A stretch of 64,000 nt of DNA from Eubacteriales bacterium (GCA_045541455.1 JAZQJA010000019.1:22387-86386); one strand, 5' to 3'; counted from the stretch's first letter, positions 5,127 to 35,368 are shown. Made by a program: numbers and translations. Notes: generated from the sequence alone by a model not told the origin.

Positions 5127-6722
5127 ATGAAACTAAAACGATTGTTTACAGGTATTATATGTATCTGTATTGTTCTTACTTCATTTTCCGGTATAACAGT
5201 TACTACTAAAGCTGCAACAGTTGACGGTGTAACTAATAAATATACTTATGTTAGAATGGCTCCCTATTGGACAGCTTCAGTTGTAGATAATATGGCAGGT
5301 GGGGTGGCTATAACAATAATTGAACGTGATTATAATTACTTATATGTTCAGTATAACAAAGATGGAATAACAAAGCGCGGTTATATACCTATAGCAGACA
5401 CTAGTAATACAGGTTATTCATGGTGTAACCATACATATTTTATACCTGGAAATTGCTATAACACTGTTACTGTTTATTATGGTCCCGGTAGTACATATTC
5501 TTCCTGCGGAACAATTTATTCAGGGGAATTCCCTCTCCTTGTATTAGAAAAAGAATCGGGATATTACTATGTTCAATATGTAACTAATCCAACAGCAACC
5601 GGATCTACTCAACCGCTGTATAAAAGGGGCTGGGTTAATGCGTCTTATATAACATTAAGGTTATCAACAAAACCCAGCTATTTTTCAACAGATTCTTCAC
5701 AATATACTTTAATTCGAAGCCCATATGGAAGTTATTTAACAGCAGTTGCAGATTCATCTCAAGAAAGCGGGTATGCTCTTGGTTTAACAACAGGAACAGG
5801 AGATCCTAATCAACAATGGATTGTATATAAATATAATTATTCCAATGCCATATATTATAAAATTAAATCTGTTTCCACTGGGCTGTTTATTCAGGTGCAA
5901 GATGTAATTCCGTTAATTGATAAACAACTAATATTAACAACTGAATCATCTCCCAACAAAGCACAGGAATTTGAAATTAAATTTTTGAATACAATTGATT
6001 CGAATAACGGAGCTTTTGAATTTGGATATAAATCAATGATATTACCTAGAAGTAGCGGCGATTTTTTGGCAGCTCAAGAATATGGAACAACAATTCGACA
6101 ATACCGAGCTAATAGTTCATATCAAAATCAATGGTTTTATTTTGATCCTATTGATAATATGTGGGACGGTAAATATTCATCGGGAAGAACAAATTTAACT
6201 TATTATATAGACCCATCTGTATTGGTTGGTAGAATTAGAGTATATGAAATTGAAAGTGCCGCTAATTCGTGGAATGGTATTAGTAATGTGAGTTTAACGC
6301 GTGTGTTCAGTTCTGCCGGTGCGGATATAGTGCTAAAAGGGACTGATAGTATTAATAACATAGAAAAATTGGCAGGATTGTGTTCTCCTATAGTGGAATC
6401 GACAACAGATGCTAATAATTCTAATTGGTATGGAGTTGTCCTGTATATAAATACTTATGTCGATAGTGAAGGATATATAGCTGATGGAAAACATACTGAT
6501 TCAGTCATTAAATTAAAAAACATTCAAAAAACTATTGCTCATGAATTTGGTCATGCTATAAAACTTAGGCATCATCACGAAGATTCGAATCCCAATGATA
6601 ACTATCAATATGCATATATTAAATCAATAATGAATCAAGGTCTTCATAGTGACGAAACAACTAATAGACCCATAAGTCCAAGCCAATTTGACCAAAGAGC
6701 GTTAAAACTTAAATGGGATTAA
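5127..6722 (+). CDS. secreted metzincin (matrixin-like) Zn protease with two SH3b-like domains and a ricin-type lectin-like region
   Basis: signal peptide; SH3b-like segments ending KRGYI and KRGWV; NQQW/NQWF; HEFGHAIKLRH (HExxHxxxxxH) and Met-turn SIMN. Confidence 0.8.
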   Translation: MKLKRLFTGIICICIVLTSFSGITVTTKAATVDGVTNKYTYVRMAPYWTASVVDNMAGGVAITIIERDYNYLYVQYNKDGITKRGYIPIADTSNTGYSWCNHTYFIPGNCYNTVTVYYGPGSTYSSCGTIYSGEFPLLVLEKESGYYYVQYVTNPTATGSTQPLYKRGWVNASYITLRLSTKPSYFSTDSSQYTLIRSPYGSYLTAVADSSQESGYALGLTTGTGDPNQQWIVYKYNYSNAIYYKIKSVSTGLFIQVQDVIPLIDKQLILTTESSPNKAQEFEIKFLNTIDSNNGAFEFGYKSMILPRSSGDFLAAQEYGTTIRQYRANSSYQNQWFYFDPIDNMWDGKYSSGRTNLTYYIDPSVLVGRIRVYEIESAANSWNGISNVSLTRVFSSAGADIVLKGTDSINNIEKLAGLCSPIVESTTDANNSNWYGVVLYINTYVDSEGYIADGKHTDSVIKLKNIQKTIAHEFGHAIKLRHHHEDSNPNDNYQYAYIKSIMNQGLHSDETTNRPISPSQFDQRALKLKWD

Positions 6723-6749
6723 ATATTTAGAGAGTAGAGGTGTCATAAT

Positions 6750-7637
6750 ATGAAAAAGAAATTACATTTGATAATAATTTTATTGATATTTACTTTATGC
6801 TCTTGTTCAAATACAAAAGAAAATCCTGCTCTTTATCAAAAACTTAAGGAGCTATATCCAGATGCTCAAATATCTAGTGACGGAGGTTATTATAATATAA
6901 TTGAAAATGTTTCTATTGAAGGACTTGAAAAAAATAAAATTGGCTCAGGAGATATGATAGTATATTCTGACTTTGATTCATATGAAAAAGATTGTATTAT
7001 ACCTTCTAAAACTATAATATTTAAAGGCAAAAAAACTGATATATCAACTCAATATATAACTGTTTCTGCTGATACTGGTAATATCGAAGGATTACCTAGA
7101 ACAGAAATTAAAATAGAGGTTATTGAGTCTTATTACGGTGATGTAAAAGCTGGAGATTTTATAACTTATACCGACTTGTTTTATGTTACTACAAATGATA
7201 ATGGCGAAAGTATTATAAATTCATACGATGCAATAATTCCCGATGAAGGTGAACTTATATATATTTTAAATTTTAACAGTGATAAAAAAGTCTATTGGGT
7301 TTCCAATAATATGGTACCGCCTGTATCACTTGAACTGTATGAAAATGCTAAGCAACAGAATTTTATCTTGTCAAATATATATAAAAAATATATTTTAAGT
7401 AACGAGGCTGCGTCTGACAAAACGTCGCTTGCTGTAAAAGAACTTCAGTGGCAAAGAGAACTTGCTAGGCGTAAGGCTGAGGCAAATATGGAAGTTGAAA
7501 AAAACAAAAGAATTATTTCAAAGTGCGATAAAGTTTTGGCGCTTGAAAATCCAACACAAACTCAGCTTATGGAGGCTTTACCTGAAGCAGAACGGGAAAT
7601 TATTAACAGACTTGTAGAAAAATACAGCAAAAAATAA
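6750..7637 (+). CDS. lipoprotein of unknown function (family member 1)
   Basis: lipobox LCSC; paralog of 9180-10088 and 10111-11025. Confidence 0.8.
   Translation: MKKKLHLIIILLIFTLCSCSNTKENPALYQKLKELYPDAQISSDGGYYNIIENVSIEGLEKNKIGSGDMIVYSDFDSYEKDCIIPSKTIIFKGKKTDISTQYITVSADTGNIEGLPRTEIKIEVIESYYGDVKAGDFITYTDLFYVTTNDNGESIINSYDAIIPDEGELIYILNFNSDKKVYWVSNNMVPPVSLELYENAKQQNFILSNIYKKYILSNEAASDKTSLAVKELQWQRELARRKAEANMEVEKNKRIISKCDKVLALENPTQTQLMEALPEAEREIINRLVEKYSKK
7338..7634 (+). repeat. near-identical 3' block shared with 9789-10070
   Basis: only scattered substitutions and one short divergent/indel segment between copies. Confidence 0.9.
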
Positions 7638-7666
7638 AGTTCTAAATAAAAAGTAAGTAAAGAATG

Positions 7667-7779
7667 TAAAAAAACACTGTAGAAACTTTGGTTTCTACAG
7701 TGTTTTTTACATTATAACGGGAGTTATCTGCTTGCCGCTTAGTGCCTCTGTTATTGTTTTATCAAGCATTGTCATATCG
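7667..7779. repeat. direct repeat copy B (terminator + functional dpaB 3' end)
   Basis: matches 4766-4879. Confidence 0.95.
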
Positions 7780-8279
7780 GCAATGCAAGAGCGTTCTTTG
7801 TTTTGAGGGTCGTCTTGCGAAAAGGGTACAAAATAAATATTTTTACAGTTAAGCAACATACCGATGTTTTTAGCGCTGCAAGCAAGAGCGTCATTGGTTG
7901 ATACTGCAATAATGAGCGGTCTTGCATTTCTAAGGTGTGCTTTTGCCGCCATTGTAACGGCGGTGTCAGTAACACCAAGGCAAAGCTTTGCCAGCGTGTT
8001 TCCCGTGCAAGGCGCAATTACAAGCGCATCGCACATTCGTTTCGGGCCTATCGGCTCGGCATCTTTTACCGTGTGAATCACATCTTTTTTACAAGCACAT
8101 TTTGCCCTGTCAATAAAGTCTTTTGCTCTGCCAAACCGTGTGTCAGTTTCATAAGTGATTTGTGACATAATCGGCAGTATATCGTATTTTTCGCTCAGCC
8201 GTTCAAGTTCTCTCATTGCTTTGTCAAGCGTACAAAACGAGCCGCACATTGCAAAGCCAAGCCGTATTTTATTTTCCAT
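7707..8279 (-). CDS. dpaB: dipicolinate synthase subunit B
   Basis: GFAMCGSFCT, TDTRFG, AEPIGPK, APCTGNTLAKL, FVPFSQDDP. Confidence 0.95.
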   Translation of the reverse strand: MENKIRLGFAMCGSFCTLDKAMRELERLSEKYDILPIMSQITYETDTRFGRAKDFIDRAKCACKKDVIHTVKDAEPIGPKRMCDALVIAPCTGNTLAKLCLGVTDTAVTMAAKAHLRNARPLIIAVSTNDALACSAKNIGMLLNCKNIYFVPFSQDDPQNKERSCIADMTMLDKTITEALSGKQITPVIM

Positions 8280-8280
8280 T

Positions 8281-9000
8281 TCACACCTCCGAAAGCCGTA
8301 GGAGAATGGTGCGTTTTAGTATCTCTCCTGCACTTTTTGGTGCAACTTTGCCCGGCAGCCCCAGTGCTGTAATAGTGCTTATGCCGTAACGCTCGGCACT
8401 GTCAATGTCTACACTTCCGGGGCGTGAGGCAAGGTCAATAATAAGCGTGCTTTTATCAAGCGTTTTTATAACGCTGTCGGTGATTACAAGGTGAGGTACC
8501 GTTGAAAATATAATATCACTTTTAATATTTTCAAGCTTTTCAAAACCAAACGCTAAGGCGCCGCGGTTTTCCGCCTCTGCTTGTGACTCTTCGCGCCGTG
8601 CAATAACCGTTACGTTTGCACCCAAAGCTATCAGCCTGTCAGAGAGTACTTTTCCAATGTTACCGTAACCGACCACCGTAACACAACTTCCGCTTATTGT
8701 ATAGTCGGTGTTTTGCATGGCAATAGCCAGCGCGCCCTCTGCAGTGGGAAGTGCATTTCGCGCTTTGAAATATGCGCTGTTTGCATAATTTATACAACCG
8801 TCACAGTCCATACTGCAAAATACTGTTTTGCCGCACATATCTTCTGTCGGTTTCATACCTATCGGCAGTATTATAATGTCACAGTTTTTAGCGCAGCTGC
8901 CAATATCGTCATACATTTTTGTGCAGTAGCCGTCGTTTTCAAGCGCTTGGTTTAAATATTCCATTCGTTTGTCACCTTTAATAACCCCAAACCGATACAT
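8281..9000 (-). CDS. dpaA: dipicolinate synthase subunit A (short form)
   Basis: NALPTAEGA, VGYGNIG, IDLASRPG, ALGLPGKVAPKSAG; adjacent to dpaB. Confidence 0.9.
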   Translation of the reverse strand: MYRFGVIKGDKRMEYLNQALENDGYCTKMYDDIGSCAKNCDIIILPIGMKPTEDMCGKTVFCSMDCDGCINYANSAYFKARNALPTAEGALAIAMQNTDYTISGSCVTVVGYGNIGKVLSDRLIALGANVTVIARREESQAEAENRGALAFGFEKLENIKSDIIFSTVPHLVITDSVIKTLDKSTLIIDLASRPGSVDIDSAERYGISTITALGLPGKVAPKSAGEILKRTILLRLSEV

Positions 9001-9086
9001 AAAGCACTATTCTCCTTTCTGTATATACTATTCAAAACCTCTTGTTTGGGTGAAACTTTAATGACTGTTGAATTATATAGGAAACA

Positions 9087-9115
9087 TTTACTTTTATAAT
9101 GGTTTATAGTATAAT
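9087..9115 (+). promoter_or_regulatory. putative sigma-A promoter for orphan lipoproteins
   Basis: TTTACT-17 bp-TATAAT. Confidence 0.55.
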
Positions 9116-9179
9116 ATAAATAGGGAAAGTTCTTTAACAATTGTCGCCTTTTAATTAAAAAATGAAAGGAGAATTTGTA

Positions 9180-10088
9180 GTGAAAAATAAACTTAAACTG
9201 TTTACAGTATTAATATTAATAGCCGCGTTGTTGCTATGCTCTTGCCAAAAAACAAAAGAAAATCCTAAACTCCTTTTAAAACTTAAAGAGCAATACCCAA
9301 ATGCCCAGATAGTGTCTGCGGGAGATGTGTATAATGTTACAGAAACAGTGTCAATAACGGGTCTTGAAAAACAAGAAGCTTCTATAGTTGATTATATGAT
9401 TTTTGATGATTATGAATCTTTTGAGCAAGCATGTATAATTCCATCCAAAACTCTTATTTTCAAGGGCAAAAGAACGGACGTAGTTAAACAGACTATACCT
9501 ATATCTATAACACACGCTGTTATGGAAGGTCAGCCGAAAGCGGAAATGCAAATAGAGGTTATTGAAGCGTATTACGGTGATGTAAATGCAGGAGATTTTG
9601 TAACTTATACAGATTTCTTTTATGTTACAGAAAATAAAGACGGTAAAAGAGTTATTGTTTCTCACGGTGCAAAAATTCCCGACGAGGGCGAGCTTATATA
9701 TATTTTATATCTTTATGGAAAGCCTGATGATAGTAAAAAAGTATATTGTAATGCATACGGGCTGCTTCGTCCTTTGGCGATTGAAATATATGAAAATGCT
9801 AATCAACAGAATTTTATCTTGTCAAATGTATACAAAAAATATATTTTAAGTAACGAGGCTGCGTCTGACAAAACGTCGCTTGCCATAAAAGAACTCCAGT
9901 GGCAAAGAGAACTTGCAAGTCGTAGGACTGGGTTTAAAAACAAAAGAATTGTTTCAAAGTGCGATAAAGTTTTGGCGCTTGAAAATCCAACACAAACTCA
10001 GCTTATGGAGGCTTTACCTGAAGCAGAACGAGAAATTATTAACAGACTTGTAGAAAAATACAGCAAAAAAACACCAAATACAAATTAA
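9180..10088 (+). CDS. lipoprotein of unknown function (family member 2)
   Basis: GTG after AAAGGAG; lipobox LCSC; aligns full length with 6750-7637. Confidence 0.8.
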   Translation: MKNKLKLFTVLILIAALLLCSCQKTKENPKLLLKLKEQYPNAQIVSAGDVYNVTETVSITGLEKQEASIVDYMIFDDYESFEQACIIPSKTLIFKGKRTDVVKQTIPISITHAVMEGQPKAEMQIEVIEAYYGDVNAGDFVTYTDFFYVTENKDGKRVIVSHGAKIPDEGELIYILYLYGKPDDSKKVYCNAYGLLRPLAIEIYENANQQNFILSNVYKKYILSNEAASDKTSLAIKELQWQRELASRRTGFKNKRIVSKCDKVLALENPTQTQLMEALPEAEREIINRLVEKYSKKTPNTN

Positions 10089-10110
10089 GTGCCATAAAGG
10101 AGTGATAAGA

Positions 10111-11025
10111 GTGAAAAACATATTTAAATCGTTTGTTGCTATACTGTTAATGCTTTTACTGTTCTTATCCTCTTGTGAATCTAAAGTGCCAAGCAGTCTT
10201 AAAGAAAAATATCCTAATTCTTTAATAGAAAAAGAATTATGGGGATATTCGGTAGTTTCCAAATTTGATAATTTTGACTGGCTTGAAATTACAGATGTTA
10301 ATACATCTGCAGGCAGTATAGACCGTAGGGTTTATGAAAGTTTTGATGAAATATATTCTGAATATTCAGCCGTGTCTACCAAAGTTTTTTTGGGTAAAAA
10401 AACAGGAGAGTCAAAGCAGTATATACCTATAGATAAAACAGATTATGTAAATGGGATATATTTTACTGAAAGTGTTGTAGAAGTAATCGAACCGTATTTT
10501 GGGGATATTACAACCGGACAAAAATTAATTTACAGAGAATTGTTTGCTGTATTTGCTGATGAAAACGGAAATAAAAAGATTAATGGTGTAGAAAAACCTG
10601 TAGGAGATGAAGAAAGAATTTTCGTTGTGGGAGCGTCAGGAAATGCTGAGCTATATGAAAACGAAGCACAGCACCTTTCTATAGATGGACCGTATTATAC
10701 CGATATATCGAAATATGAAAACTTAAACCGTGAACTGTATAGAAGTGAAGTGATAGCCAAAGCGTTTATAGAAAAATATTATATAAACAAAGATACTGCA
10801 GTTGATAAGGTACAACTTGCAAAATATATAGCTCATCGTAAAAAAGAAAGTATAAAAAAGAAAATTGACACTTTATCTAAAGAGGAACTTTCAAAATATG
10901 AAATGTTAACTGATACTTTAAAAGAAGAAAATGCTACTTATTCACAACTTAAAGAGTTTCTTACAGACAAAGAAGTGGAGTCTATTGAAAATATTGCAAA
11001 AAGGTACGGCGAAATAAAAAAGTGA
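10111..11025 (+). CDS. lipoprotein of unknown function (family member 3, divergent)
   Basis: GTG after AGGAG; lipobox LSSC; shared motifs LKEKYPN, VFLGKKT, VEVIEPYFGD, EKYYI. Confidence 0.75.
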   Translation: MKNIFKSFVAILLMLLLFLSSCESKVPSSLKEKYPNSLIEKELWGYSVVSKFDNFDWLEITDVNTSAGSIDRRVYESFDEIYSEYSAVSTKVFLGKKTGESKQYIPIDKTDYVNGIYFTESVVEVIEPYFGDITTGQKLIYRELFAVFADENGNKKINGVEKPVGDEERIFVVGASGNAELYENEAQHLSIDGPYYTDISKYENLNRELYRSEVIAKAFIEKYYINKDTAVDKVQLAKYIAHRKKESIKKKIDTLSKEELSKYEMLTDTLKEENATYSQLKEFLTDKEVESIENIAKRYGEIKK

Positions 11026-11400
11026 GATGCTTGCGAGACTTCTCATAAGGAAGTCTCGCAGTTTTATTCGCCAAAGGCGAGTGATATTGCTTCGCAGTTA
11101 TATGATGCTTTCGCATCGTGATATTGTCCTACGGACAGTTTTTAGGGCGAATAAAATATCACTGCGACCAGAGGGAGTAATATCACTTTCACAAAGTGAA
11201 AATATCACTCTTTGCACAGCAAAGAATATCACTTATCTTTCTTGTTTGTTGTTAAAAGGGTTTGGGTATCACCCAAAAAGAAGCATTTGTACTTACAAAT
11301 GCGATGCTGGTTCTTTCCGATAAGCATAAGAAAAGCCTCGATGAATTTCATCGAGGCTTTAATCATCCTTATGAGAAGCACCCTTTTGCATCTCACTTTT
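11018..11400. repeat. structured non-coding element with inverted ends and internal hairpin arrays (MITE/REP-like or ncRNA)
   Basis: AAAAGTGAGATGC..CTTCTCATAAGGA at left mirrored by TCCTTATGAGAAG..GCATCTCACTTTT at right; GT(G/T)(A/T)TAT(T/G)+hairpin x4 then AATATCAC x4. Confidence 0.8.
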
Positions 11401-11404
11401 AAAT

Positions 11405-12448
11405 TTACGGACGGTATTTATTTACTATCTCAAGCATTTTATCTTTGTTTTGTTCCATTTCGTACACAAGTTTTAACTGTGTATGACAGCGGTCGAGATT
11501 ATGCTCGGGATATGCTGTTTTAAAGTATGTATCACCGTCAAGATAGTCGGTTAAAAACCTAACACCGCATTCGTATGTCATCATAATTGCGCCGTGCGGT
11601 AAAAGTTTAATTTCGTCATCGGTAAGAGCGTTACCCACACCCTCGAAATAGCCTTTGACATACGCTTCAAAAAGGTCTAGTGAAAAGTGCACTTTGTCAA
11701 GGTCTTTTTCGTCCTCTTTGGCGGTTGATGCACCAAAACGGATAGCGTCGCCAAAATCGTTAATCGAAAGGCCGGGCATTACGGTATCAAGGTCAATAAC
11801 GCAAGCGCCCTTGCCTGTTTTCTCATCAAGCAAAACATTGTTAAGTTTTGTGTCGTTGTGGGTTACGCGAAGCGGTAAAACAACACCCGTTTCAATATCC
11901 TTTTCACGAGCAAGACAAAACTCAATTTCTTTTAAAACGCTGTCTTTTCTGCCGGCTTTGTTAGCCTTCACCGCATTTTTCAGGTTTGAAAGACGCCACA
12001 TTGTATTGTGAAAGTCTTTAATTGTTTCGTTTAATGTATCAACGGGGAAACCTGCAAGTTTTTTCTGAAAACTGCCGAATGCAACGGCACTTTCATAAAA
12101 ATCATCAGCGTTTCTTGCACTGTCAAGCGCGATAACATTATCAATGTAAACAGACAGTCTGTAACAACCGCTGTCGCACTTAAAGTACTTTTTACCGTCT
12201 TTTGTGCGTACATACACAATAGTTTTATCGTTTGGATAATTTGCTTTAAGATACTCTGTTACAGCAAATAAGTTATCCATAAGTTCGTCGGGGTTTTTGA
12301 AAACATTGGTGTTGATTTTTTGAAAGGTGTACTTTTCACAGCAGGTTTCAACAAGACAGGTGTCGTTGATGTGACCGTTGCCGAGCGGGGAAATGCTTTT
12401 GATTTCACCTTTCAAATCAAACTGTTTTAAAATATCTCTTACTTCCAT
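11405..12448 (-). CDS. APH/choline-kinase-fold sugar kinase (N-acetylhexosamine 1-kinase-like)
   Basis: GNGHINDT, QKINTNVF, THNDTKLNN, IDLDTVMPG, RFLTDYL. Confidence 0.8.
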   Translation of the reverse strand: MEVRDILKQFDLKGEIKSISPLGNGHINDTCLVETCCEKYTFQKINTNVFKNPDELMDNLFAVTEYLKANYPNDKTIVYVRTKDGKKYFKCDSGCYRLSVYIDNVIALDSARNADDFYESAVAFGSFQKKLAGFPVDTLNETIKDFHNTMWRLSNLKNAVKANKAGRKDSVLKEIEFCLAREKDIETGVVLPLRVTHNDTKLNNVLLDEKTGKGACVIDLDTVMPGLSINDFGDAIRFGASTAKEDEKDLDKVHFSLDLFEAYVKGYFEGVGNALTDDEIKLLPHGAIMMTYECGVRFLTDYLDGDTYFKTAYPEHNLDRCHTQLKLVYEMEQNKDKMLEIVNKYRP

Positions 12449-13356
12449 AATATATCGGGATATACTCCGTTGTCCTTTAAAGATTGAATGCCTGCAGCAA
12501 CCTTGGGTTTATCTTCGGCATAAGTAACACCGTACCATTTGTCTGGTGTGTTGAGCACGTCGACCTCGGCTATACCGTCTTTTAACATACCGTCAACGGC
12601 AAAAGGAAGGAAAAATTCACCTTTAAGCGGGTTTGTCTTAGCGGTTTCATCAAGAAAAGCAGGGAATCTTCTTTCAAGCTCATTTATGAAGTCGCTGTCA
12701 TAACCCCACATATTCATCGAAGCCACACTGTCACCGGGCAGTGAAACATAAGTTTTACCGTCGTCTTCGGTGTATTTTGCGTTTTCACCGTCAATTTCGA
12801 TATGAGTGCGCTCGTCAATTTTTTTGAGTTTACCGTCTTCTACAACACAGATACCGCGTGAAACATAACCGTTGTCGGTAAGTGTGTTTGAAAGTCTGTA
12901 ACCGATAAGCGCGATTGAGTGTTTGTCCGATTTTTTGTCGGTTGTAAGGTAGTCATAAACAACTTTGTATGCTGTAGGACCGTAATAGTCGTCAGAGTTA
13001 ATAACAGCAAACGGGCCGTCGATAACATCTTTACAACAAAGGATGGCGTGAGCGGTGCCCCACGGTTTTACACGGCCTTCGGGAACGCTGTAGCCCTTGG
13101 GAAGTTTGTCAAGTTCCTGATAAACATAATCAACTTTAATATACTTTGAAATTCTGTCACCAATGGAATCTTTAAACTCCTTTTCAATTTCATGCTTGAT
13201 AACAAAAACAACCTTTTCAAAGCCTGCTTTTATTGCATCGTAAATTGAAAAGTCAATAATAAGGTTTCCGTGGCTGTCAATGGGGTCGATTTGTTTAAGA
13301 CCGCCGTAACGGCTGCCCATGCCTGCCGCCATAACTACAAGTGTCGGTTTTGCCAT
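12439..13356 (-). CDS. sugar-phosphate nucleotidyltransferase
   Basis: MAAGMGSRYGGLKQ, KPWGTAHA, VINSDDYYG. Confidence 0.85.
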   Translation of the reverse strand: MAKPTLVVMAAGMGSRYGGLKQIDPIDSHGNLIIDFSIYDAIKAGFEKVVFVIKHEIEKEFKDSIGDRISKYIKVDYVYQELDKLPKGYSVPEGRVKPWGTAHAILCCKDVIDGPFAVINSDDYYGPTAYKVVYDYLTTDKKSDKHSIALIGYRLSNTLTDNGYVSRGICVVEDGKLKKIDERTHIEIDGENAKYTEDDGKTYVSLPGDSVASMNMWGYDSDFINELERRFPAFLDETAKTNPLKGEFFLPFAVDGMLKDGIAEVDVLNTPDKWYGVTYAEDKPKVAAGIQSLKDNGVYPDILWK

Positions 13357-13514
13357 GATAAATATCTCCTTTTTAGGTTATTTATTATGTCTTTATTATA
13401 CCACGCACTTTTTTCAATTACAACAACAAAAACCTTTATTATACAAATAAAGACCTATCTTGTTGACTTTGAATTTTAAAGTTGTTATAATCATACTTTA
13501 AGGAAGTGATATTT

Positions 13515-14060
13515 ATGGCTATTATAGGCGGTCTTAACAGCGTGCCCGACGTTAAGGTGCTTGTTCTTTATATTTTAAACTATGCAGGCATCCCCCTTTC
13601 AAAAGATAATATTATAAACATTGGGCTTGATGCAGGCACCGCGGCATATTTTGATTTGGCGCAGGCAATTGATGAAATGTTGATTACAGGCCTTATTGAT
13701 ATAACATCTACAAAAACGCCCGACATTTTGCGTATAACGGAAATGGGCAGACAAACGCTTTTGATGTTTGAAAAAACATTACCGCACAGTATCCGCCGTA
13801 AAAACCAGTCGGCACTTTTAAAACTGCTTGCGGATATTGAGCGCAGTAAAAGCGTAAAAAGCGATATTATTAAAAAACAAAACGGCTATGAAGCGGTGTG
13901 CACTCTGCTTGACGGTGAGGACACCTTGCTGGAATACCGCTTGTTTGTTCCCACTCAAATTCAGGCACAAATGGTGGTTGACCAGTTTACCAAAAACCCA
14001 ACAGACAAGTATAAAAATATTTTGCAACTTTTAATAGACGAAAAACTTTTTGAGGAATAA
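13515..14060 (+). CDS. DUF4364-like winged-helix protein
   Basis: KVLVLYILN...YFDLAQAI...ITEMG and VPT..QA pattern of this clostridial family. Confidence 0.65.
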   Translation: MAIIGGLNSVPDVKVLVLYILNYAGIPLSKDNIINIGLDAGTAAYFDLAQAIDEMLITGLIDITSTKTPDILRITEMGRQTLLMFEKTLPHSIRRKNQSALLKLLADIERSKSVKSDIIKKQNGYEAVCTLLDGEDTLLEYRLFVPTQIQAQMVVDQFTKNPTDKYKNILQLLIDEKLFEE

Positions 14061-14062
14061 AA

Positions 14063-26083: not shown

Positions 26084-26105
26084 ATTTAAAATCAAAAGGA
26101 AAGAT

Positions 26106-27692: not shown

Positions 27693-27698
27693 TAAAGT

Positions 27699-28499
27699 AT
27701 GGCAATCAAGGAGTTGTTTTTTGAGGGCAAAACAATCGAAATTGCTCTTGAAAACGCAGCGGCGCAGCTTTTTGAGGATAAGGATATGCTTACTTATGAA
27801 GTAGTGCAATACCCAACAAAAGGCATTTTCGGAATAGGCGCCACCCCCGCCAAAATTAAGGTGGAACGTGAGGTTGCAGAACAAAGTGCACCTCAAAAAG
27901 AAAAGAAGGCAGAGCAAAAGGAAATAAAACTTCCAAAAGGTTTTGCACCTGAAAAAATTTCTAAAAAAGAGCCTGAAAAAAACAGTGCTCCAAAACAGCA
28001 ACCTGTTACAATTGAAAGAAAACTTACTCCCGTTACCCAAGACGATGAGGTTGCAAAAGCTGTTACCGATTTTATTTTAGGCTTGCTTGAAAATCTTGAA
28101 ATCGAAAACGGAAAAGTAACTGTCAGCATTGATGAGGACGGCAGTTATTTTGCTCAAATCGACGGCAGCAAAATGGGTGTACTCATCGGCAGACGCGGGG
28201 AGGCGTTAGATGCTGCACAGTACCTTACAAATCTTGTTATAAATCGCGGCAAAGACAAAAAGGTTAAAGTTATTCTTGACAGCGAAAACTACCGTGCAAA
28301 AAGAATTGCGGCACTTACTGCGCTTGCTAACAAAACTGCCGACAAGGCAATTAAGTATAAGAGAAATCAGTCGCTTGAGCCTATGGGTGCTTATGAACGC
28401 AGAATTATTCATGCATCACTTACCGGCAGAGAACACATCACTACCTATTCAGTCGGTACCGAACCCAGACGCAAGGTTGTTATTTCTTATCAAGCATAA
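27699..28499 (+). CDS. jag: RNA-binding protein Jag/EloR (KH + R3H)
   Basis: KGIFGIG, LIGRRGEALDA, ERRIIH. Confidence 0.9.
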   Translation: MAIKELFFEGKTIEIALENAAAQLFEDKDMLTYEVVQYPTKGIFGIGATPAKIKVEREVAEQSAPQKEKKAEQKEIKLPKGFAPEKISKKEPEKNSAPKQQPVTIERKLTPVTQDDEVAKAVTDFILGLLENLEIENGKVTVSIDEDGSYFAQIDGSKMGVLIGRRGEALDAAQYLTNLVINRGKDKKVKVILDSENYRAKRIAALTALANKTADKAIKYKRNQSLEPMGAYERRIIHASLTGREHITTYSVGTEPRRKVVISYQA

Positions 28500-28501
28500 T
28501 T

Positions 28502-28530
28502 AAAAGGCAGTTCTTTAGAACTGCCTTTTT
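28502..28530 (+). terminator. intrinsic terminator
   Basis: AAAAGGCAGTTC-TTTA-GAACTGCCTTTT. Confidence 0.8.
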
Positions 28531-28549
28531 AAATCCAAGGAGAATTTAT

Positions 28550-29911
28550 ATGGATACAATTTGTGCAATAGCAACCGCACGGGCGGCATCGGCCGTTGGC
28601 ATTATCCGTGTCAGCGGTGAAAAGGCGGTTGAAATTTGTGATAAAATACTCGTCTTAAAAAAAGGTACTCTTTTTGATTGTAAAGGTGCCAATATGCGCC
28701 TTTGCACCGTAACCGACGGCAAACGCGCTGTTGACAGCGCACTTGTAACGGTGTTTTTTGCACCGATGTCATATACCGGCGAAAATGTAGTTGAAATTTG
28801 TTGCCATGGCGGCGTGTCAATACTTGAACGTGTTATGAAACTGCTTATAAAAAACGGCGCTCGTTATGCCGTTGGCGGTGAATTTACAAAACGTGCGTTT
28901 TTAAACGGAAAACTCGACCTTGTTCAAGCAGAGGCGGTGTGCGACCTTATCAATTCTACATCGGCACTCGATGCAAGTCTTGCTCTAGACAGAATGTCTG
29001 GTAGGCTGTCAAACGAATTTACAGCAATTTTTGATGAACTCGTGTCGATAAATACTGATATTTTAGCGTATGTCGATTTTCCTGAAGAGGGTCTTTATGA
29101 TGTCGATGCGGGCAGTGTACTTGAAAAACTTAATGCAGTTCAAAAACGCCTTATAGCCCTTGAAAACAGTTTTAATATGGGTAGTGTAATAAGTGACGGT
29201 GTCGACACTGTTATTATCGGTGCTCCAAACGTTGGTAAAAGCACCCTTTTAAATGCAATTGTAGGCTTTGAAAGGGCAATAGTGTCAGATACGGCAGGTA
29301 CCACTCGCGATATGGTTACAGAACGCGCGGTAATGGGGGATGTTACACTCAATCTGTGCGATACGGCGGGCATCCGAAAAGATGCGGGTGAGATAGAAAG
29401 CCGCGGCATTGAACTTGCAAAGCGCTCGCTTGATAGTGCCGGCCTTGTGCTCGCAGTTTTTGATAGTTCAAGGGCACTTGACGACGGCGATAGGGAGATT
29501 ATAGAACTTTGTAAAAATAAAACTGCAATTGCAGTAGTAAACAAGTGCGATCTATCTTGTAAAATCGACCTTGAGTTTTTAGATAATAGTTTCTCATCAG
29601 TTGTAATGCTTTGTGCAAAACAAAACCATGGTATAAATGAACTTGAAAAAGAAATAAGTAGTTTGTTTTTAAACGATAAAATTTCACTTGAAAGCGGAAA
29701 ATTGCTTACAAACGCGCGCCATTATGAGCGTGTTGTGAAAGCACGTGAAAAAACAGACAGTGCTATTCAAACATTACAAAACGGGTTTACTCCTGACCTT
29801 GCAAGCGTTGATATTACCGAGGCGGCGGGCGAAATAGGCGCAATCACGGGTGCCGGTGTGTCAGACCGCATTATTGATGATATATTCTCTAAATTTTGTG
29901 TAGGAAAATAA
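28550..29911 (+). CDS. mnmE: tRNA modification GTPase
   Basis: DTICAIAT, SYTGE, GAPNVGKS, GTTRD, DTAG, NKCD, FCVGK. Confidence 0.95.
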   Translation: MDTICAIATARAASAVGIIRVSGEKAVEICDKILVLKKGTLFDCKGANMRLCTVTDGKRAVDSALVTVFFAPMSYTGENVVEICCHGGVSILERVMKLLIKNGARYAVGGEFTKRAFLNGKLDLVQAEAVCDLINSTSALDASLALDRMSGRLSNEFTAIFDELVSINTDILAYVDFPEEGLYDVDAGSVLEKLNAVQKRLIALENSFNMGSVISDGVDTVIIGAPNVGKSTLLNAIVGFERAIVSDTAGTTRDMVTERAVMGDVTLNLCDTAGIRKDAGEIESRGIELAKRSLDSAGLVLAVFDSSRALDDGDREIIELCKNKTAIAVVNKCDLSCKIDLEFLDNSFSSVVMLCAKQNHGINELEKEISSLFLNDKISLESGKLLTNARHYERVVKAREKTDSAIQTLQNGFTPDLASVDITEAAGEIGAITGAGVSDRIIDDIFSKFCVGK

Positions 29912-29947
29912 AAAAATACCTTATGGCACAGCCATAAGGTATTTTTT
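29911..29947. terminator. bidirectional terminator
   Basis: AAAAAATACCTTATGGC-ACA-GCCATAAGGTATTTTTT. Confidence 0.9.
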
Positions 29948-29950
29948 ATT

Positions 29951-30853
29951 TTACCGTTTAGAATATTTAAGTGTAATTACCACAATAGCAACTGCCGCTG
30001 CAACAATTATCAGCAGTACTGTTAAAGCGGTTGTGATGGGGCTCATATTTTCATCTTGCTGCTCGTCAATGATTATATAGTTATCAGTTATTTCTGTTTC
30101 TTCTTCATAAGGAGAGTCAAGTCCTATCTCGACATCCGGAATAATATCATCATTGGTGGTGTTTTCTTCTATTTTTTCTATATAGTCTTTAGCAGTTGCT
30201 TTATTTTTGTCGGTCAAAACCGGCTTTTTTGGAAGCCCTGTATAGTCTTCACTGGTAGTTTTGGGCTGCGCTTCAATTACAGCATCAGGTGCATCGATGT
30301 AAACCCATGCTTGCCTTATGCCGTAATGATATGCCACATATCCCCATCTGCCGCCGTTTTTGTCAGTATAAATCTGTGATATTGTCGGTGCTTCCATTGT
30401 GTTTTCAATAAAACTGTCTGAAAGCGGATAACTGTAATATTTAATCGAAGTTACATTTTCAAACAGTGTCTTATCATCTTCAAAATTTGTCAGTTCGTTA
30501 CCGTACTCATCTAAAAACGCCTGCGAATCGTAAACCAGTTTGGTGTAAGCCATATCAATCCATAATTCATCATCGCCATTTATAAACAAGCCGTAGCAGA
30601 TACCTTTGTCGTTGTAATATACATAGGTTATGTTAATTTCACCGCCCGTTTTGGCAACGCCTGCCTTTTTACCGTCAGGCTCTTTTCTTAGTATGGTGTC
30701 CTGCGTAACGGTGTATCTGCGGTTGATATGTGTCATATCTTCCTTGTTCTCATAGTAAAAAGTGTTGTCATTGTCAGGTTCCCATATCATATCTGCGCTT
30801 GCACTTGCTGTAAGCAAAAGGGCCATTAAAATTATTGCTAAAAACTTTTTCAT
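29951..30853 (-). CDS. exported protein with SH3-like segments, acidic linker and C-terminal TM anchor
   Basis: signal peptide ending ASA, LRKEP..WI and WGYV..AWV segments, C-terminal TM + KYSKR. Confidence 0.7.
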   Translation of the reverse strand: MKKFLAIILMALLLTASASADMIWEPDNDNTFYYENKEDMTHINRRYTVTQDTILRKEPDGKKAGVAKTGGEINITYVYYNDKGICYGLFINGDDELWIDMAYTKLVYDSQAFLDEYGNELTNFEDDKTLFENVTSIKYYSYPLSDSFIENTMEAPTISQIYTDKNGGRWGYVAYHYGIRQAWVYIDAPDAVIEAQPKTTSEDYTGLPKKPVLTDKNKATAKDYIEKIEENTTNDDIIPDVEIGLDSPYEEETEITDNYIIIDEQQDENMSPITTALTVLLIIVAAAVAIVVITLKYSKR

Positions 30854-31164
30854 AAAATCACTCCTATAAAATATGATATTGCGTTTGCAAAAATTGAAAA
30901 CATAAACGGTCTTTTAATATGCTGTGAATACTTTGAGTATAAAATGCCCTCAATTATTACTACCAGTATTTCTATAAACAGTATAATAAAAATATTTCTG
31001 TCAAACATATATGCCAAAAATACGGCGATTGGGTTTGTAAGTACATTTACAAGAAATATTAAAAGCAGTTCGCGCTTTTTTAAAAAGAGTGCAAAAACAA
31101 GTTCGATTATAACAGTGAGTGTTAGCGACACCGCTAAAATCAAAGGCATTTCAATCGGCATCAA
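30850..31164 (-). CDS. small 4-TM membrane protein of unknown function
   Basis: T..IE, NVLTNP, E..V...E, AN..S pattern; overlaps both neighbours. Confidence 0.7.
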   Translation of the reverse strand: MMPIEMPLILAVSLTLTVIIELVFALFLKKRELLLIFLVNVLTNPIAVFLAYMFDRNIFIILFIEILVVIIEGILYSKYSQHIKRPFMFSIFANAISYFIGVIL

Positions 31165-32149
31165 GTAACCCCCTTGTTATAAGAATAATTGTAAGTACGC
31201 AAATTGATACAAACTGAAAGGTATTGTTAATAGCAATACTTACGCCCAAATAAGTCGGTAAAAAGCCCAAGAAAAGTGCAGTCGTGAGAATACCGAATGC
31301 AAAAGCTTTTGCACCTTTAAGTATGTCGCAAAGCGCACCAAGCGTTATAGGCATTGTCATATTAAACAGTAAAAATGAAAGTACAGCACAAAAGCCTATG
31401 TGACTTTGCGTGTAAAATATTGCCGACAAAAAAAGAGAAACAACGGCAGTCATCCAGTGTGAGAATTTATCCGAAAATATACCACCCAGCGCTTTGCCAA
31501 GAGTAATGCCCAATGCCATTACAGCAAGCCATAATTGTGTCGTTAATTTAGGGGTGAGAGCAAACCCTGTATAAGAACGCAAAAAGGTTGCAATAAAAAT
31601 ACAAACTATCGCAATAGCGCTGCTTGTGTTAATGCTTATTTTAAACGGTGTTTTTTGTAAAGGCTTGCTTTTTAAAATAAGTATTATAAGCATTAAAATT
31701 GCTGTAAAAATAATACATTCAACTATAATATAATTGATTTTGTTGTTAAATACGAGTCTGCCTAAAAATAAACCGAGTGCGCCCGATGACACAAAAATAC
31801 CGGCTGCCGTATAACCGCGGTTTTGGTGCAAAACATATCCGCCTGCACCAATATGGTAAAGCGCATTTCCCAATCCGCATAAAAAACCACATATAAGCGT
31901 ATACGGGGCTATAAATACCGATGCCGAAATTACAATAAGTCCTGCTGCTGCATAACCTTCATATCCGTTTGTTTTGTCGGCAAGCAATCCTAACGGCATC
32001 TGCAAAACAAATGCGCAAAAATTATATAAAAGTAACATAAGCGCACCATTTGTGCAAAGACCATGTGCACTGAGTATTATGTAAATACTTGCAAAATCTG
32101 CAACAAAATGTCCGTATGTATATATGTAAAGTGAAATTTTATTGTTCAT
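31151..32149 (-). CDS. MFS-like membrane protein
   Basis: many TM segments; GLLADK and GGIFSDKF loop motifs; GNALYHIG, NMTMP; ATG after GAAGGTG. Confidence 0.7.
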   Translation of the reverse strand: MNNKISLYIYTYGHFVADFASIYIILSAHGLCTNGALMLLLYNFCAFVLQMPLGLLADKTNGYEGYAAAGLIVISASVFIAPYTLICGFLCGLGNALYHIGAGGYVLHQNRGYTAAGIFVSSGALGLFLGRLVFNNKINYIIVECIIFTAILMLIILILKSKPLQKTPFKISINTSSAIAIVCIFIATFLRSYTGFALTPKLTTQLWLAVMALGITLGKALGGIFSDKFSHWMTAVVSLFLSAIFYTQSHIGFCAVLSFLLFNMTMPITLGALCDILKGAKAFAFGILTTALFLGFLPTYLGVSIAINNTFQFVSICVLTIILITRGLLDAD

Positions 32150-32306
32150 CTCACACCTTCTTTCACCTATAATATGTATGTATTGTATCAAAAAGTTTCA
32201 AACTGTATGTAAAAAATAAGTTGGTTTTTTTGTGTATATTTAATGTTGAAAAATGTTAATAGTTATGTTACAATTATTAAATATTGCTTTTAAAGAGGGA
32301 AAAACT

Positions 32307-33863
32307 ATGAAAACACTTACTATTATGGTCATCGCCATTGGCCTTTACCTTTTGGGTATGATTGGCATTGGCGTGTGGACATCAAGAAAGAATAAAAATA
32401 CTGATGACTTTTATCTTGGTGGCAGACAGCTCGGCCCTATCGTAACTGCTATGAGTGCCGAAGCGTCGGATATGAGTTCGTGGCTACTTATGGGCTTGCC
32501 CGGTGTTGCAATGCTTTCCGGTCTTGCTGAAGCGTCGTGGACTGCAATCGGCCTTGCAATCGGTACATATTTAAACTGGCTAATTGTTGCAAAACGTCTT
32601 CGCGTTTACACTCAGCGTATTGGGGCTATCACCATTCCCGAATATTTTTCAAAGCGCTACGGTGACGACAAAAACATTTTAAGCATTATTGCCGCTGTTA
32701 TCATTATAGTTTTCTTTATTCCGTATACAGCGTCTGGCTTTGCCGCTTGCGGTAAATTGTTTTCGTCTGTACTTAATGTTGATTATCTAACAGCGATGAT
32801 AATCTGTGCGGCAATTATTGCGGTTTATTGTGTTCTGGGCGGTTTTCTTGCTGCCAGCACAACCGACCTTATCCAGTCGATAGTTATGACGCTTGCGCTT
32901 GTTATTGTTATTGGCTTTGGTGAAACTGCAGTTACTGCAAATACAGGTGCATTTGGCTTTGACGGTATTCTTAATGCTGTAAAAGATTTACCAGGTTATC
33001 TTTCACTTACACATAGTTACGATGCCGCAACCGGTACTGCTACAAGTTACGGCACCGTTACAATCGTCGGCTTGCTTGCATGGGGCCTTGGCTATTTCGG
33101 TATGCCTCATATTCTCCTTCGCTTTATGGCTATTAAAGATGCTTCAAAAATTAAAACCTCACGCCGTATTGCATCGGTTTGGGTTGTTATCTCAATGGGT
33201 GTTGCAGTTATGATAGGTGTTGCAGGTCTTTCGCTTGCAAACCACGGTGTAATTCCTATGCTTGAAGGCTCAAACACCGAAACGGTTATTATCGAAATTG
33301 CAAAGGCAATCGGTAAATACGGTTATATTCTCGCACTTATCGCAGGTGTCATACTTGCAGGTATTCTTGCAGCAACAATGTCAACTGCCGACTCACAGCT
33401 TATTACAGCTTCGTCAAGCGTTACAAAAGATATTGCACAAAACTTTTTGCACATTAAAATGTCCGACAAAATGTCAATGATAATTGCAAGGGCAACGGTA
33501 ATTATCATTTCGCTTATTGCTGTTGTTTTTGCAGCAGACCCCAATTCGTCTGTTTTCCGTATCGTTCAGTTTGCGTGGGCAGGCTTTGGTGCAACATTTG
33601 CTCCGGTAGTTCTGGCTTCGCTTTTCTGGAAGCGCTCAAACAAGTGGGGTGCGCTTGCAGGTATGCTTGCCGGCGGTATTACTGTTTTTGTTTGGAAATA
33701 CGGCATTTCAAAACTCGGCGGTGTGTTTGCAGTATATGAATTGTTACCGGCATTTATCGTTGCATGCATCGCTCTTGTGGTTGTAAGCCTTTTGACCTCT
33801 AAACCGTCAGAAAAAATAATAAAAGAATATGACGAAGCAAAAGCCGCTTCAAAAGAGAAATAA
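32307..33863 (+). CDS. putP: sodium/proline symporter
   Basis: YLGGR, SAEASDMSSWLLMGLPG, WGLGYFGMPHIL, MSTADSQL. Confidence 0.9.
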   Translation: MKTLTIMVIAIGLYLLGMIGIGVWTSRKNKNTDDFYLGGRQLGPIVTAMSAEASDMSSWLLMGLPGVAMLSGLAEASWTAIGLAIGTYLNWLIVAKRLRVYTQRIGAITIPEYFSKRYGDDKNILSIIAAVIIIVFFIPYTASGFAACGKLFSSVLNVDYLTAMIICAAIIAVYCVLGGFLAASTTDLIQSIVMTLALVIVIGFGETAVTANTGAFGFDGILNAVKDLPGYLSLTHSYDAATGTATSYGTVTIVGLLAWGLGYFGMPHILLRFMAIKDASKIKTSRRIASVWVVISMGVAVMIGVAGLSLANHGVIPMLEGSNTETVIIEIAKAIGKYGYILALIAGVILAGILAATMSTADSQLITASSSVTKDIAQNFLHIKMSDKMSMIIARATVIIISLIAVVFAADPNSSVFRIVQFAWAGFGATFAPVVLASLFWKRSNKWGALAGMLAGGITVFVWKYGISKLGGVFAVYELLPAFIVACIALVVVSLLTSKPSEKIIKEYDEAKAASKEK

Positions 33864-33878
33864 AAACACTTAATAAAT

Positions 33879-33926
33879 AAAACACAGCACCCTGAAATTG
33901 TAGTACTTTCAGGGTGCTGTGTTTTT
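33879..33926 (+). terminator. long-stem terminator
   Basis: AAAACACAGCACCCTGAAA-loop-TTTCAGGGTGCTGTGTTTT. Confidence 0.85.
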
Positions 33927-33974
33927 ATCAAATATGTTGAATTTACATAAATAGTTTTAAAAAGATTAAAACTA

Positions 33975-34003
33975 TTGACAAAAGTGGAATAAAATGCTAA
34001 TAT
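33975..34003 (+). promoter_or_regulatory. sigma-A promoter of second protease-lipoprotein pair
   Basis: TTGACA-17 bp-TAATAT with TG extension. Confidence 0.65.
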
Positions 34004-34061
34004 AAATATGGCAGATGGAAGATAAAAGACGTCTTTACAGCTACATAATAAGGAGGTAAAT

Positions 34062-34685
34062 ATGTGTATAAACAGAAGTGTATATAAACGGTTTTTCACT
34101 ATAATATCTTTGGTTTCAATTATTGCTATGGTATGTTGTAGTGCCAATGCGTATGTTCACCAAGGTGGAAAGTTAAATAATGGTGTAAAAAATCAAAAAT
34201 ATTATATTGGCATTACAAATGATACATTGGCTTCACAATGTATACAAGCATTTTCTGATTGGAATTATGCTATGAATGCTCAATCACCATATTCTAGTTT
34301 AGGTTTTTCTTTTACTCGCTCAAGTCTAATACGAGATTCTACAATTAGATTTTGGGGAGAAAATGTACCCGGAGAGTCTTGGTATGGTTTAACACGCTAC
34401 TATATTGTTGATAACAACCTAAATGCCACAAGAGTGTCAAATGCATACAATAGGGATTATTCAAGTTGTATTTTAAATATGGCATATTTTGATTCATCAT
34501 ATAATTTTCCTACGGTATTACATTGGAAATCAATTTCTGCTCATGAAATAGGTCATGCAATGGGGTTGGCTCATACAAATGCTGATGGCGATGTAGGTAA
34601 ACTCATGTTTAAAGGGTTTAATGTAAGAACCGCAACATCACCGACAGGGGATGAAGTAAGGGGCATATACTATAAATATAATTGA
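34062..34685 (+). CDS. secreted single-domain metzincin (matrixin-like) protease
   Basis: signal peptide ending ANA; AFSDWN; HEIGHAMGLAH; Met-turn KLMF. Confidence 0.85.
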   Translation: MCINRSVYKRFFTIISLVSIIAMVCCSANAYVHQGGKLNNGVKNQKYYIGITNDTLASQCIQAFSDWNYAMNAQSPYSSLGFSFTRSSLIRDSTIRFWGENVPGESWYGLTRYYIVDNNLNATRVSNAYNRDYSSCILNMAYFDSSYNFPTVLHWKSISAHEIGHAMGLAHTNADGDVGKLMFKGFNVRTATSPTGDEVRGIYYKYN

Positions 34686-34750
34686 TTTAAGGGTGTATAT
34701 AACTAGATAAAATAAAAATTATAAAATCAACATATAAGAAAGGAGTTAAT

Positions 34751-35368
34751 ATGAAAAGATTATTACTAAATTTGTGTACGATAGCATTATGTGTGGCTTT
34801 TTGTTCATGCACAAGCGTAAAAGATAGCACTGATGGCGAAATATATTTTCCTACTAAGTCTGAAAAAGAATCTGTAATGTCTGCAGAAATGATTATACCA
34901 AAGAATATGAGCGAACTTTATGATACTGCTCATAGTATAGTTGTCTGCGATATTATAAAGGATGACGAGTCTATTCAAAACGGTTCTGTTGATTTGGCTA
35001 TTTCTACAGCCAGAATTGTGGAAGTAATAAAAGGAGACCATCAGAAAAATACCGATATTTTAATTCAGGAAACAGGGGAAAGGCTACAAGACGGGGATAT
35101 TTCAATAGATGGCGTACCTCTGTTAAGAAAGAATATGAAAGTGTTGCTGTTCTTAAATAAACCTACAACTGAAAATTATAACGGTAAAACAACTTATGGC
35201 ATTGTCGGTTGTTATTACGGAAAGTTTTTCTATGACAATAATAAGACTGTACATTCGGCAGTTGACTTTGCAGTTGACAATGCAACAGAATTGTCAGATT
35301 TCAAACAACCGCAAAAAGAACAAATTGTGCTAACCTCTATTGAAGAAATTTCCAAGACTTATAAATAG
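34751..35368 (+). CDS. lipoprotein of unknown function paired with the protease
   Basis: lipobox FCSC; AHSIVVCDI, IVEVIKG, PLL....VLLFL, YGIVG..YGKF. Confidence 0.8.
   Translation: MKRLLLNLCTIALCVAFCSCTSVKDSTDGEIYFPTKSEKESVMSAEMIIPKNMSELYDTAHSIVVCDIIKDDESIQNGSVDLAISTARIVEVIKGDHQKNTDILIQETGERLQDGDISIDGVPLLRKNMKVLLFLNKPTTENYNGKTTYGIVGCYYGKFFYDNNKTVHSAVDFAVDNATELSDFKQPQKEQIVLTSIEEISKTYK

Follow-up and report, generated by a model that had tools for sequence, protein, structure and literature searches.

The DNA analysed here is a stretch of 64,000 nucleotides from a Eubacteriales bacterium (GCA_045541455.1 JAZQJA010000019.1:22387-86386), called the window below; positions are counted from its first letter. 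It carries two two-gene units, each encoding a secreted metzincin protease followed directly by a lipoprotein (protease A with LipoA1, protease B with LipoB), and two additional lipoprotein genes, lipoA2 and lipoA3, that have no adjacent protease gene (Table 1). A preliminary description of the same DNA had singled out these genes and read them as a candidate effector-immunity system, in which TIMP-like lipoproteins would inhibit the neighbouring proteases. The open reading frames (ORFs) that it delimited were confirmed, as was the AT-rich character of the units, whose GC fraction is 0.31–0.33 compared with about 0.40 in the surrounding DNA. The gap between the genes is 28 nt in the first unit (protease A to lipoA1) and 66 nt in the second (protease B to lipoB). 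The lipoproteins are predicted to share the fold of TIMPs and related NTR modules, and the pairs recur across genomes, resembling a module published for Listeria monocytogenes.

Table 1. Genes and candidate regulatory sites of the two units and of the additional lipoprotein genes. HMM, hidden Markov model of the lipoprotein core domain.
Feature	Coordinates	Strand	Description	Basis
Protease A	5127..6722	+	531-aa secreted protein; signal peptide, weak SH3-like region, ricin-B lectin domain, C-terminal M10-like metzincin domain	ORF
LipoA1	6750..7637	+	295-aa lipoprotein; small N-terminal beta domain, predicted NTR/TIMP-like OB domain (~67-222), C-terminal helical bundle (220-295)	
LipoA2	9162 (or 9180)..10088	+	LipoA1 paralogue, no adjacent protease gene, strain-variable	
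LipoA3	10102..11025	+	Second paralogue, no adjacent protease gene; core-HMM E 1e-27	
Protease B	34062..34685	+	207-aa minimal secreted matrixin-like metzincin; signal peptide, HEIGHAMGLAH, Met-turn LMF	Peptidase_M10 match
LipoB	34751..35368	+	205-aa lipoprotein; lipobox Cys ~19-20, disordered tether, predicted NTR/TIMP-like domain ~46-205	
Sigma-70-type promoter-like site	4919..4947	+	Upstream of protease A; 12/12 consensus matches, extended TG	
Terminator-like palindromic hairpin	7669..7708	.	18-bp stem, T runs on either strand; lies between lipoA1 and the convergently oriented flavoprotein gene	
Promoter-like site	9087..9115	+	Upstream of lipoA2; 10/12 matches	
Terminator-like hairpin	11031..11061	+	3' of lipoA3	
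Promoter-like site	33975..34003	+	Upstream of protease B; 10/12 matches with TG	
Terminator-like hairpin	35374..35417	+	20-bp stem, 3' of lipoB	

The proteases and the predicted fold of their partners

The lectin domain of protease A matches RicinB_lectin_2 (PF14200) with an E-value of 1e-8. Its C-terminal zinc site, HEFGHAIKLRH, is followed by SIM and has K at the position usually taken by G; metallopeptidase family models score under their cut-offs on this protein. In hhalign, the last 192 aa can be aligned with the profile of the protease B family (78%, E 1.8e-5, 116 columns), and the whole architecture recurs in relatives sited upstream of lipoA homologues. Protease B, which was aligned with four relatives taken from paired loci, scores 27.6 bits with Peptidase_M10 (PF00413), above the cut-off of 24, and its mature chain begins right after the signal peptide, leaving no propeptide. 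No delivery domain or toxin-type architecture was seen in the proteases, which possess only Sec signal peptides together with the lectin and SH3-like domains.

LipoA2 and LipoA3 share 66% and 31% identity, respectively, with LipoA1. Between LipoA1 and LipoB, BLASTP aligns the signal peptides only. Profile comparison with hhalign relates the two families at 97.3% (E 2.2e-11, 122 columns) and pairs exactly those segments in which the preliminary description had seen a similar ordered motif pattern across the four lipoproteins. LipoB is thus a distant homologue of the LipoA family, as had been supposed, and, judged at the level of sequence profiles, the two families are homologous in their core. 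A word-indexed search with LipoA1 returned just two proteins, both of the same genome, and the corresponding search with LipoB returned 10, the window's own included; an exhaustive representative profile search with the LipoA1/A2/A3 alignment reached 39 cluster representatives. Searches of Pfam, NCBIfam, PHROGs and PDB sequences yielded nothing meaningful for the four window lipoproteins.

LipoA1, LipoA2 and LipoB contain a CSC tripeptide at the end of the signal peptide, which had been likened to mature TIMP N-termini with the reservation that it may be just a lipobox. The reservation proved justified: in the 34-sequence family alignment the second Cys alone is nearly invariant, the preceding position varies (LxSC, LSGC), and CSC can be read from the alignment as the lipobox only. 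The likeness to TIMP N-termini does not hold, since the LipoB fold matches up with TIMP residue 1 no earlier than about residue 46, some 26 residues past the lipid-modified Cys of the lipobox. The membrane tether itself is conserved in the family, as a lipobox or as a transmembrane helix, and the disordered tether of LipoB contains a conserved IYFP motif (P34 invariant) just before the fold.

The AlphaFold model of LipoB (predicted local distance difference test score, pLDDT, 85.8; predicted template modelling score, pTM, 0.80) was compared with known structures by Foldseek and by VIA, a Foldseek-independent structure search over 48,161 chains. NTR-module entries fill the first 17 rows of the Foldseek list (E 1.7e-3 to 1e-2), comprising agrin NtA, the C345C domains of C3/C4/C5 and cobra venom factor, the PCOLCE NTR, TIMP-2 and N-TIMP-3. 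VIA ranks 1–12 are likewise all NTR modules (Z 10.2–7.2), including agrin NtA (Z 10.2), N-TIMP-3 (Z 9.3, 115/121 residues aligned), TIMP-1 (Z 8.0) and the meteorin NTR (Z 7.2), with generic OB folds at Z ≤ 6.8. The clusters nearest to LipoB in the ESM Atlas are Bacillota lipoproteins, and those nearest among the Pfam-assigned ones belong to TIMP, NtA or NTR without exception, which we take as a lead only. For LipoA1 (pLDDT 92.6, pTM 0.85), VIA ranks 1–8 are all NTR modules (Z 8.3–6.5), N-TIMP-3 being the best (Z 8.3; 117/121 aligned, model residues 67-222); taken alone, the LipoA call of an NTR fold from this model deserves moderate confidence. Both lipoprotein families are therefore predicted to carry NTR/TIMP-like OB domains, in line with what the preliminary description had proposed from motifs.

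Linkage to metzincins

A core-domain HMM of the lipoproteins was obtained in three iteration rounds on 5,606 local ORFs. The 1.64-Mb genome that contains the window has a metzincin motif in 3 of its 4471 ORFs, and each of the three is followed by a core-HMM match within 16–66 nt. Besides proteases A and B, the third is a truncated copy without a signal peptide on another contig.

This third pair (contig C38 8304-9362, minus strand; L053 838-1896, minus strand) comprises a 134-aa M10-like ORF with the motif HEMGHAIGLAD (PF00413, 33.9 bits) and, after 16 nt, a 212-aa NTR-like lipoprotein. The M10-like ORF has an upstream in-frame stop and is probably a truncated remnant.

The association expected by the preliminary description, that homologues would be linked to metzincins across genomes, was recovered from three sides. 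PF00413 is present in 42 of 401 genomes of the order; among the 30 PF00413 loci returned, a partner lies directly downstream in 16, upstream in 1 and fused in 1 (18/30 in total). The fusion (L068 1495-2547, minus strand) is a single 350-aa ORF with an NTR-like N-terminal part and a C-terminal M10 domain, scoring 7e-15 with the core HMM, 65% in hhalign and 38.1 bits with PF00413; it comes from a genome that is 47% complete. From the lipoB side, 11 related loci were surveyed and an HExxHxxGxxH gene was found directly upstream in 5 (L012, L014, L018, L021, L022), amounting to 4 distinct loci, as L018 and L022 are near-duplicates. Three others, the most divergent, have no metzincin (L015, L016, L020), and the remaining 3 end at a contig edge. 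The lipoA-side survey gave 10 loci from the 401 genomes, of which 5 are paired (L024, L026, L030, L040, L031), 4 are unpaired (L025, L027, L028, L029) and 1 lies on a contig too short to tell. Partners of the ricin-lectin proteases are of the LipoA type.

Most weak order-wide matches to the lipoA family (E ~1e-6) were dropped, as they span profile positions 1 to about 100, that is, signal peptide and lipobox. A weak match of locus L011 to the C-terminus of protease A (E 1e-3) was also discarded, nothing related being found among its ORFs.

Outside the order, a Metabacillus plasmid carries, directly behind the gene of an annotated matrixin-family metalloprotease, a gene whose hypothetical product matches the family profile (hhalign 96.5%, E 7.6e-10). 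This pair from Bacilli is the nearest bridge towards Listeria; none of the 20 proteins returned by the word-indexed profile search is from Listeria itself.

Two features of the surveyed loci may be mentioned here. In L012 (2175-4621), a 65-aa metzincin-motif remnant and an NTR-like lipoprotein precede a full protease-lipoprotein pair, an arrangement that suggests cassettes in tandem, of which one has decayed. In L025, L027, L029, L067 and L078, sigma-factor-like and possible anti-sigma ORFs, noted by eye, adjoin the lipoprotein or the protease.

Unpaired partners, strain variation and genomic setting

The core HMM detects 9 family members in this genome. The six unpaired ones are LipoA2, LipoA3, two whose genes follow a YgjP-like and a Trypsin_2+PDZ gene, respectively, and two others. 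These unpaired partners are duplicated, recombining and strain-variable copies.

One of them, a 204-aa NTR-like lipoprotein, has its gene 80 nt downstream of that of a Trypsin_2+PDZ (HtrA-like) serine protease (contig C40 30767-32468, plus strand; L055 1268-2969); the lipoprotein is related to the LipoA family at 97.9% in hhalign. This adjacency hints that the partner family may serve other protease classes too. Another, on contig C22 (L005 523-2178), is a fourth LipoA paralogue of 351 aa, encoded after a cytoplasmic-type YgjP-like metallohydrolase gene (PF01863, E 4e-44), an adjacency that is probably coincidental.

The two closest copies, lipoA1 and lipoA2, form a mosaic: the synonymous divergence (dS) is about 1.1 over codons 1–200 and about 0.1 over codons 201–295, where DNA identity reaches 92–99%. 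The ratio of nonsynonymous to synonymous divergence (dN/dS) is 0.26–0.45, indicating purifying selection throughout, and positive selection on this pair was rejected on the same values. A faecal metagenome contig (4042 nt, depth 14.9) covers 7667-9223 with 12 differences and then joins 9223 directly to 10157, continuing to 11059; the strain it represents therefore lacks lipoA2. The remaining 1590 nt of that contig, left of 7667, are unlike the window, and the flavoprotein and NAD-binding genes between lipoA1 and lipoA2 are 99% conserved. A contig from an RNA library falls on 9789-10067 and was not taken as evidence of transcription; a joint from 10067 to 11012 in the RNA-library run was not used, as it has only 21 letters on one side. 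Sequencing runs with a small share were left out of any inference on habitat. Because of the lipoA1/lipoA2 mosaic, the strain without lipoA2 and a genomic context that varies within the genus, the cassettes are accessory and recombining, which is compatible with an immunity repertoire and is no evidence for one.

Each unit had been credited with its own promoter and terminator, and a consensus scan finds candidate sites at both (Table 1); these are pattern matches, with no proof of function. The neighbouring genes are of housekeeping type (HAD hydrolase, flavoprotein, NAD-binding protein, APH-family kinase, SSF symporter, V-ATPase subunit D). The window units are flanked by neither prophage nor mobile-element genes and by no cI/cro switch, and no secretion-system genes lie beside the proteases (type VI or type VII secretion, contact-dependent inhibition and the like). 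Searches of phage records with protease B and LipoB by tblastn gave no match, and Foldseek against BFVD produced poor generic OB rows only. Within the genus, the neighbours of pair B are found on different contigs; elsewhere there are only weak matches to the pair itself.

Three further elements of the window lie near these genes. On the opposite strand at 7707-9000, a flavoprotein gene (PF02441) and a gene for an NAD-binding protein separate lipoA1 from lipoA2; they resemble the two dipicolinate synthase subunits of spore formers. Directly after the lipoA3 terminator, at 11059-11129 (plus strand), lies a Gut-1 RNA (RF01706; 51.7 bits, gathering score 50), at which metagenome contigs stack up (depth ~1400, last bin), which would be expected of a repeated element that is widespread. 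A gene at 2244-4028 (plus strand) encodes a 594-aa lipoprotein with a low-complexity Gly/Thr/Asn-rich linker and no Pfam match at E ≤ 1e-5.

Proposed mechanism and comparison with known systems

In L. monocytogenes, the secreted metzincin Mtz is encoded ahead of the lipoprotein Tim (LMRG_00713/00714; Boichis et al. 2021, PMC8235301). According to that report, Tim has a TIMP-like predicted fold with no sequence similarity to TIMPs; Mtz cuts Tim at about residues 49–55, just before the TIMP-like part, and frees that part. Sensitising cells to lysis requires both Tim and catalytically active Mtz, and conditioned medium transfers the effect to neighbouring cells (PMC8235301).

We lean towards reading each window unit as a dedicated module, in which a secreted metzincin and a tethered NTR/TIMP-like partner are encoded side by side and the partner binds its own protease, keeps it latent and is cleaved by it. 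The starting points are computational: the predicted fold, the homology of the two families, the conserved adjacency with one fusion, and co-divergence; from these we infer the remaining steps. An M10-like metzincin would be secreted via Sec, made without a propeptide. Because the protease has no propeptide, we propose that a trans-acting, membrane-tethered latency partner is encoded next to it, which would bind its own protease at the cell surface and hold it latent as a trans-acting prodomain or inhibitor. The protease may then cut the tether of the partner, as Mtz is published to do with Tim in Listeria; in the LipoB family the conserved IYFP-type linker would be the site. Such a cut would release the NTR-like domain.

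The inhibition would have to differ from that of animal TIMPs. In TIMPs the mature N-terminal Cys stands at the start of the fold, and its free amino group binds the catalytic zinc. This mechanism is inapplicable to the window partners as written, because their sole conserved Cys is lipid-modified and lies about 26 residues before the fold; by this reasoning a TIMP-style N-terminal zinc plug would be impossible for an uncut lipoprotein.

A number of observations weigh against latency by a TIMP-like partner. The TIMP family PF00965 gives no match at E ≤ 0.1 to the four window lipoproteins or to the 34 lipoA-family and 10 lipoB-family members, PF01759 is not matched either, and neither family alignment contains an invariant or nearly invariant Cys besides that of the lipobox. 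The TIMP-type N-terminal CxC with a free amino group is absent at the fold start. Foldseek against the PDB gives no row at E ≤ 1e-3 for LipoB; for LipoA1 it is weaker still, with a best NTR row at E 0.045 and again no match at E ≤ 1e-3, and a Z of about 8 is graded middling by VIA's own note. The iteration of the core HMM used the same small set of ORFs; of the 9 members that it finds in the genome, 6 stand without a neighbouring metzincin, and 12 of the 30 PF00413 loci have no partner that the core HMM detects, most of them with a signal-peptide or lipobox ORF beside the protease when inspected by eye. The correlation of protease and partner distances speaks for the pairing, with a Mantel r of 0.72 for 23 clean pairs and 0.73 for 28 pairs (one YgjP pair and four truncated proteases included), values reached by 0/2000 permutations in each case; it is, though, inflated by shared ancestry, which the test leaves in. 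Finally, the Listeria system as published needs both proteins, and Tim is a substrate there, which fits a released factor as well as an inhibitor (PMC8235301).

The last point leads to an alternative that we judge unlikely, though it deserves serious weight. A pro-factor-type role was proposed for Tim by Boichis et al. (PMC8235301); applied to the window, the partner would not inhibit the protease but serve as its substrate, and the active agent would be the freed NTR-like fragment, by itself or together with the protease, directed at the cell wall or a different extracellular target. It is favoured by the report that active Mtz is required for Tim cleavage and for every lysis-sensitising phenotype, the effect being transferable with conditioned medium (PMC8235301), by the conserved LipoB tether motif just before the fold, and by the fusion, in which the NTR-like part precedes the protease in the manner of a segment to be cleaved off. 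However, co-divergence and the missing propeptide are equally expected for an inhibitor, cleavage of the window partners is a prediction by analogy, and no downstream target is known in any system.

The effector-immunity reading of the preliminary description, with proteases as antibacterial weapons, tethered partners protecting the producer and orphans protecting against the proteases of other strains, appears improbable and gained no specific support. The many family members without a metzincin neighbour (6/9) would suit it, as would the faecal strain that lacks lipoA2 and differs left of 7667, and the genomic context that varies within the genus. The lectin domain and weak SH3-like region of protease A could target cell surfaces, and Listeria conditioned medium sensitises neighbouring cells (PMC8235301). 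Against this, neither a domain of secretion systems or for delivery nor a toxin-type architecture was seen, and the published Listeria partner is needed for the effect rather than protective against it (PMC8235301). The dN/dS of 0.26–0.45 between lipoA1 and lipoA2 gives no gross sign of an arms race, and the orphans form no simple array: one follows an HtrA-like serine protease gene and another a cytoplasmic YgjP-like gene.

A bolder and rather doubtful speculation joins elements of several readings: the partners would be cleavage-armed TIMP mimics in a contest of proteases between strains, in which a cut by the metzincin at the linker motif makes a new N-terminus at the TIMP Cys1 position that plugs the zinc, unpaired partners would neutralise the lectin-targeted proteases of neighbouring gut strains, and the NTR/TIMP inhibitor fold would have arisen long ago in bacteria, with animal TIMPs as its true homologues.

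There is also a small chance that the partner is merely an anchor or chaperone, holding the protease at the membrane surface or aiding its folding with the active site unblocked. The conserved membrane tether and the tight adjacency agree with this, and several animal NTR modules bind without inhibiting, among them agrin NtA, the top structural match, which binds laminin; the cleavage seen in Listeria would be left unexplained. That the lipoproteins share only a generic OB barrel and the neighbouring gene products do not interact physically seems hardly credible: the OB fold is very common, the Foldseek E-values are weak and no known family matches in sequence, but NTR modules head both VIA lists ahead of generic OB folds, and the adjacency recurs from three independent starting points, with one fusion.

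TIMPs have long been treated as an animal invention. Tethered proteins of predicted TIMP fold beside M10-like proteases in many gut Clostridia add to the single published bacterial case. The small pairs (207 aa + 205 aa) are tractable for asking whether the partner inhibits, is cleavage-activated, or both, and natural variants for comparison are offered by the LipoA branch with its three domains, by the fusion and by the extra copies that vary between strains. If the partner inhibits, it would represent a new class of metalloprotease inhibitors and a clue to the origin of the NTR module; if it does not, the pairs would be an ordinary further example of a described gene pair.

With animal TIMPs (MEROPS I35) and the NTR module, the window partners share a predicted OB barrel with flanking helices and the coupling to M10-like metzincins, the enzyme class that TIMPs inhibit; in the window this coupling is genetic. 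The TIMP N-domain has conserved disulfide cysteines. The window partners, unlike TIMPs, lack conserved disulfides, match neither PF00965 nor PF01759, and are membrane-tethered.

The serralysin inhibitors AprI/Inh (MEROPS I38) are periplasmic eight-stranded barrels whose N-terminal trunk is inserted in the active site. They are likewise encoded by an adjacent gene, each being a dedicated inhibitor of a secreted bacterial metzincin; they are, however, neither lipoproteins nor NTR-like, and are absent among the VIA matches listed.

The potempins of Tannerella forsythia, as described in PMC9890683, are OB-fold (PotA, PotC, PotD) or eight-stranded lipoprotein inhibitors encoded beside secreted proteases, PotA inhibiting the matrix metalloproteinase-like karilysin through loops. 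Common to both systems is a lipoprotein partner with an OB barrel (five-stranded in PotA/C/D) and a secreted protease, with which potempins are co-transcribed. In contrast to the window partners, potempin genes lie upstream of the proteases, and their 98–132-residue products have no NTR helices and inhibit via the strand 4–5 loops (PMC9890683). Potempins are absent among the 50 rows listed in each VIA search (LipoB and LipoA1), which does not amount to exclusion.

The closest counterpart is Listeria Mtz-Tim, whose authors came across no previous description of TIMP-like proteins from bacteria and described gene pairs across Firmicutes, usually near mobile elements (PMC8235301); in the library that we searched, no later paper on this pair was found. 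Shared with the published system are a metzincin of the HExxHxxGxxH type that has a Met-turn and is secreted via Sec, a lipoprotein of TIMP-like predicted fold encoded immediately downstream, the occurrence of pairs across genomes, and a fold that starts about 45–50 residues in (~46 in LipoB), where Tim is cleaved. The likeness is one of architecture, predicted fold and gene order. Unlike what is described for Mtz-Tim, no phage or mobile-element genes lie beside the window units, and the window adds the N-terminal beta domain and C-terminal helical bundle of LipoA, the ricin-B lectin on the proteases and the extra partners without a protease. The window pairs are thus a module of the Listeria Mtz-Tim kind, with pair B as a plain member and the LipoA branch as a variant; new here are the three-domain partners with lectin-bearing proteases, the six unpaired partners and the strain without lipoA2.

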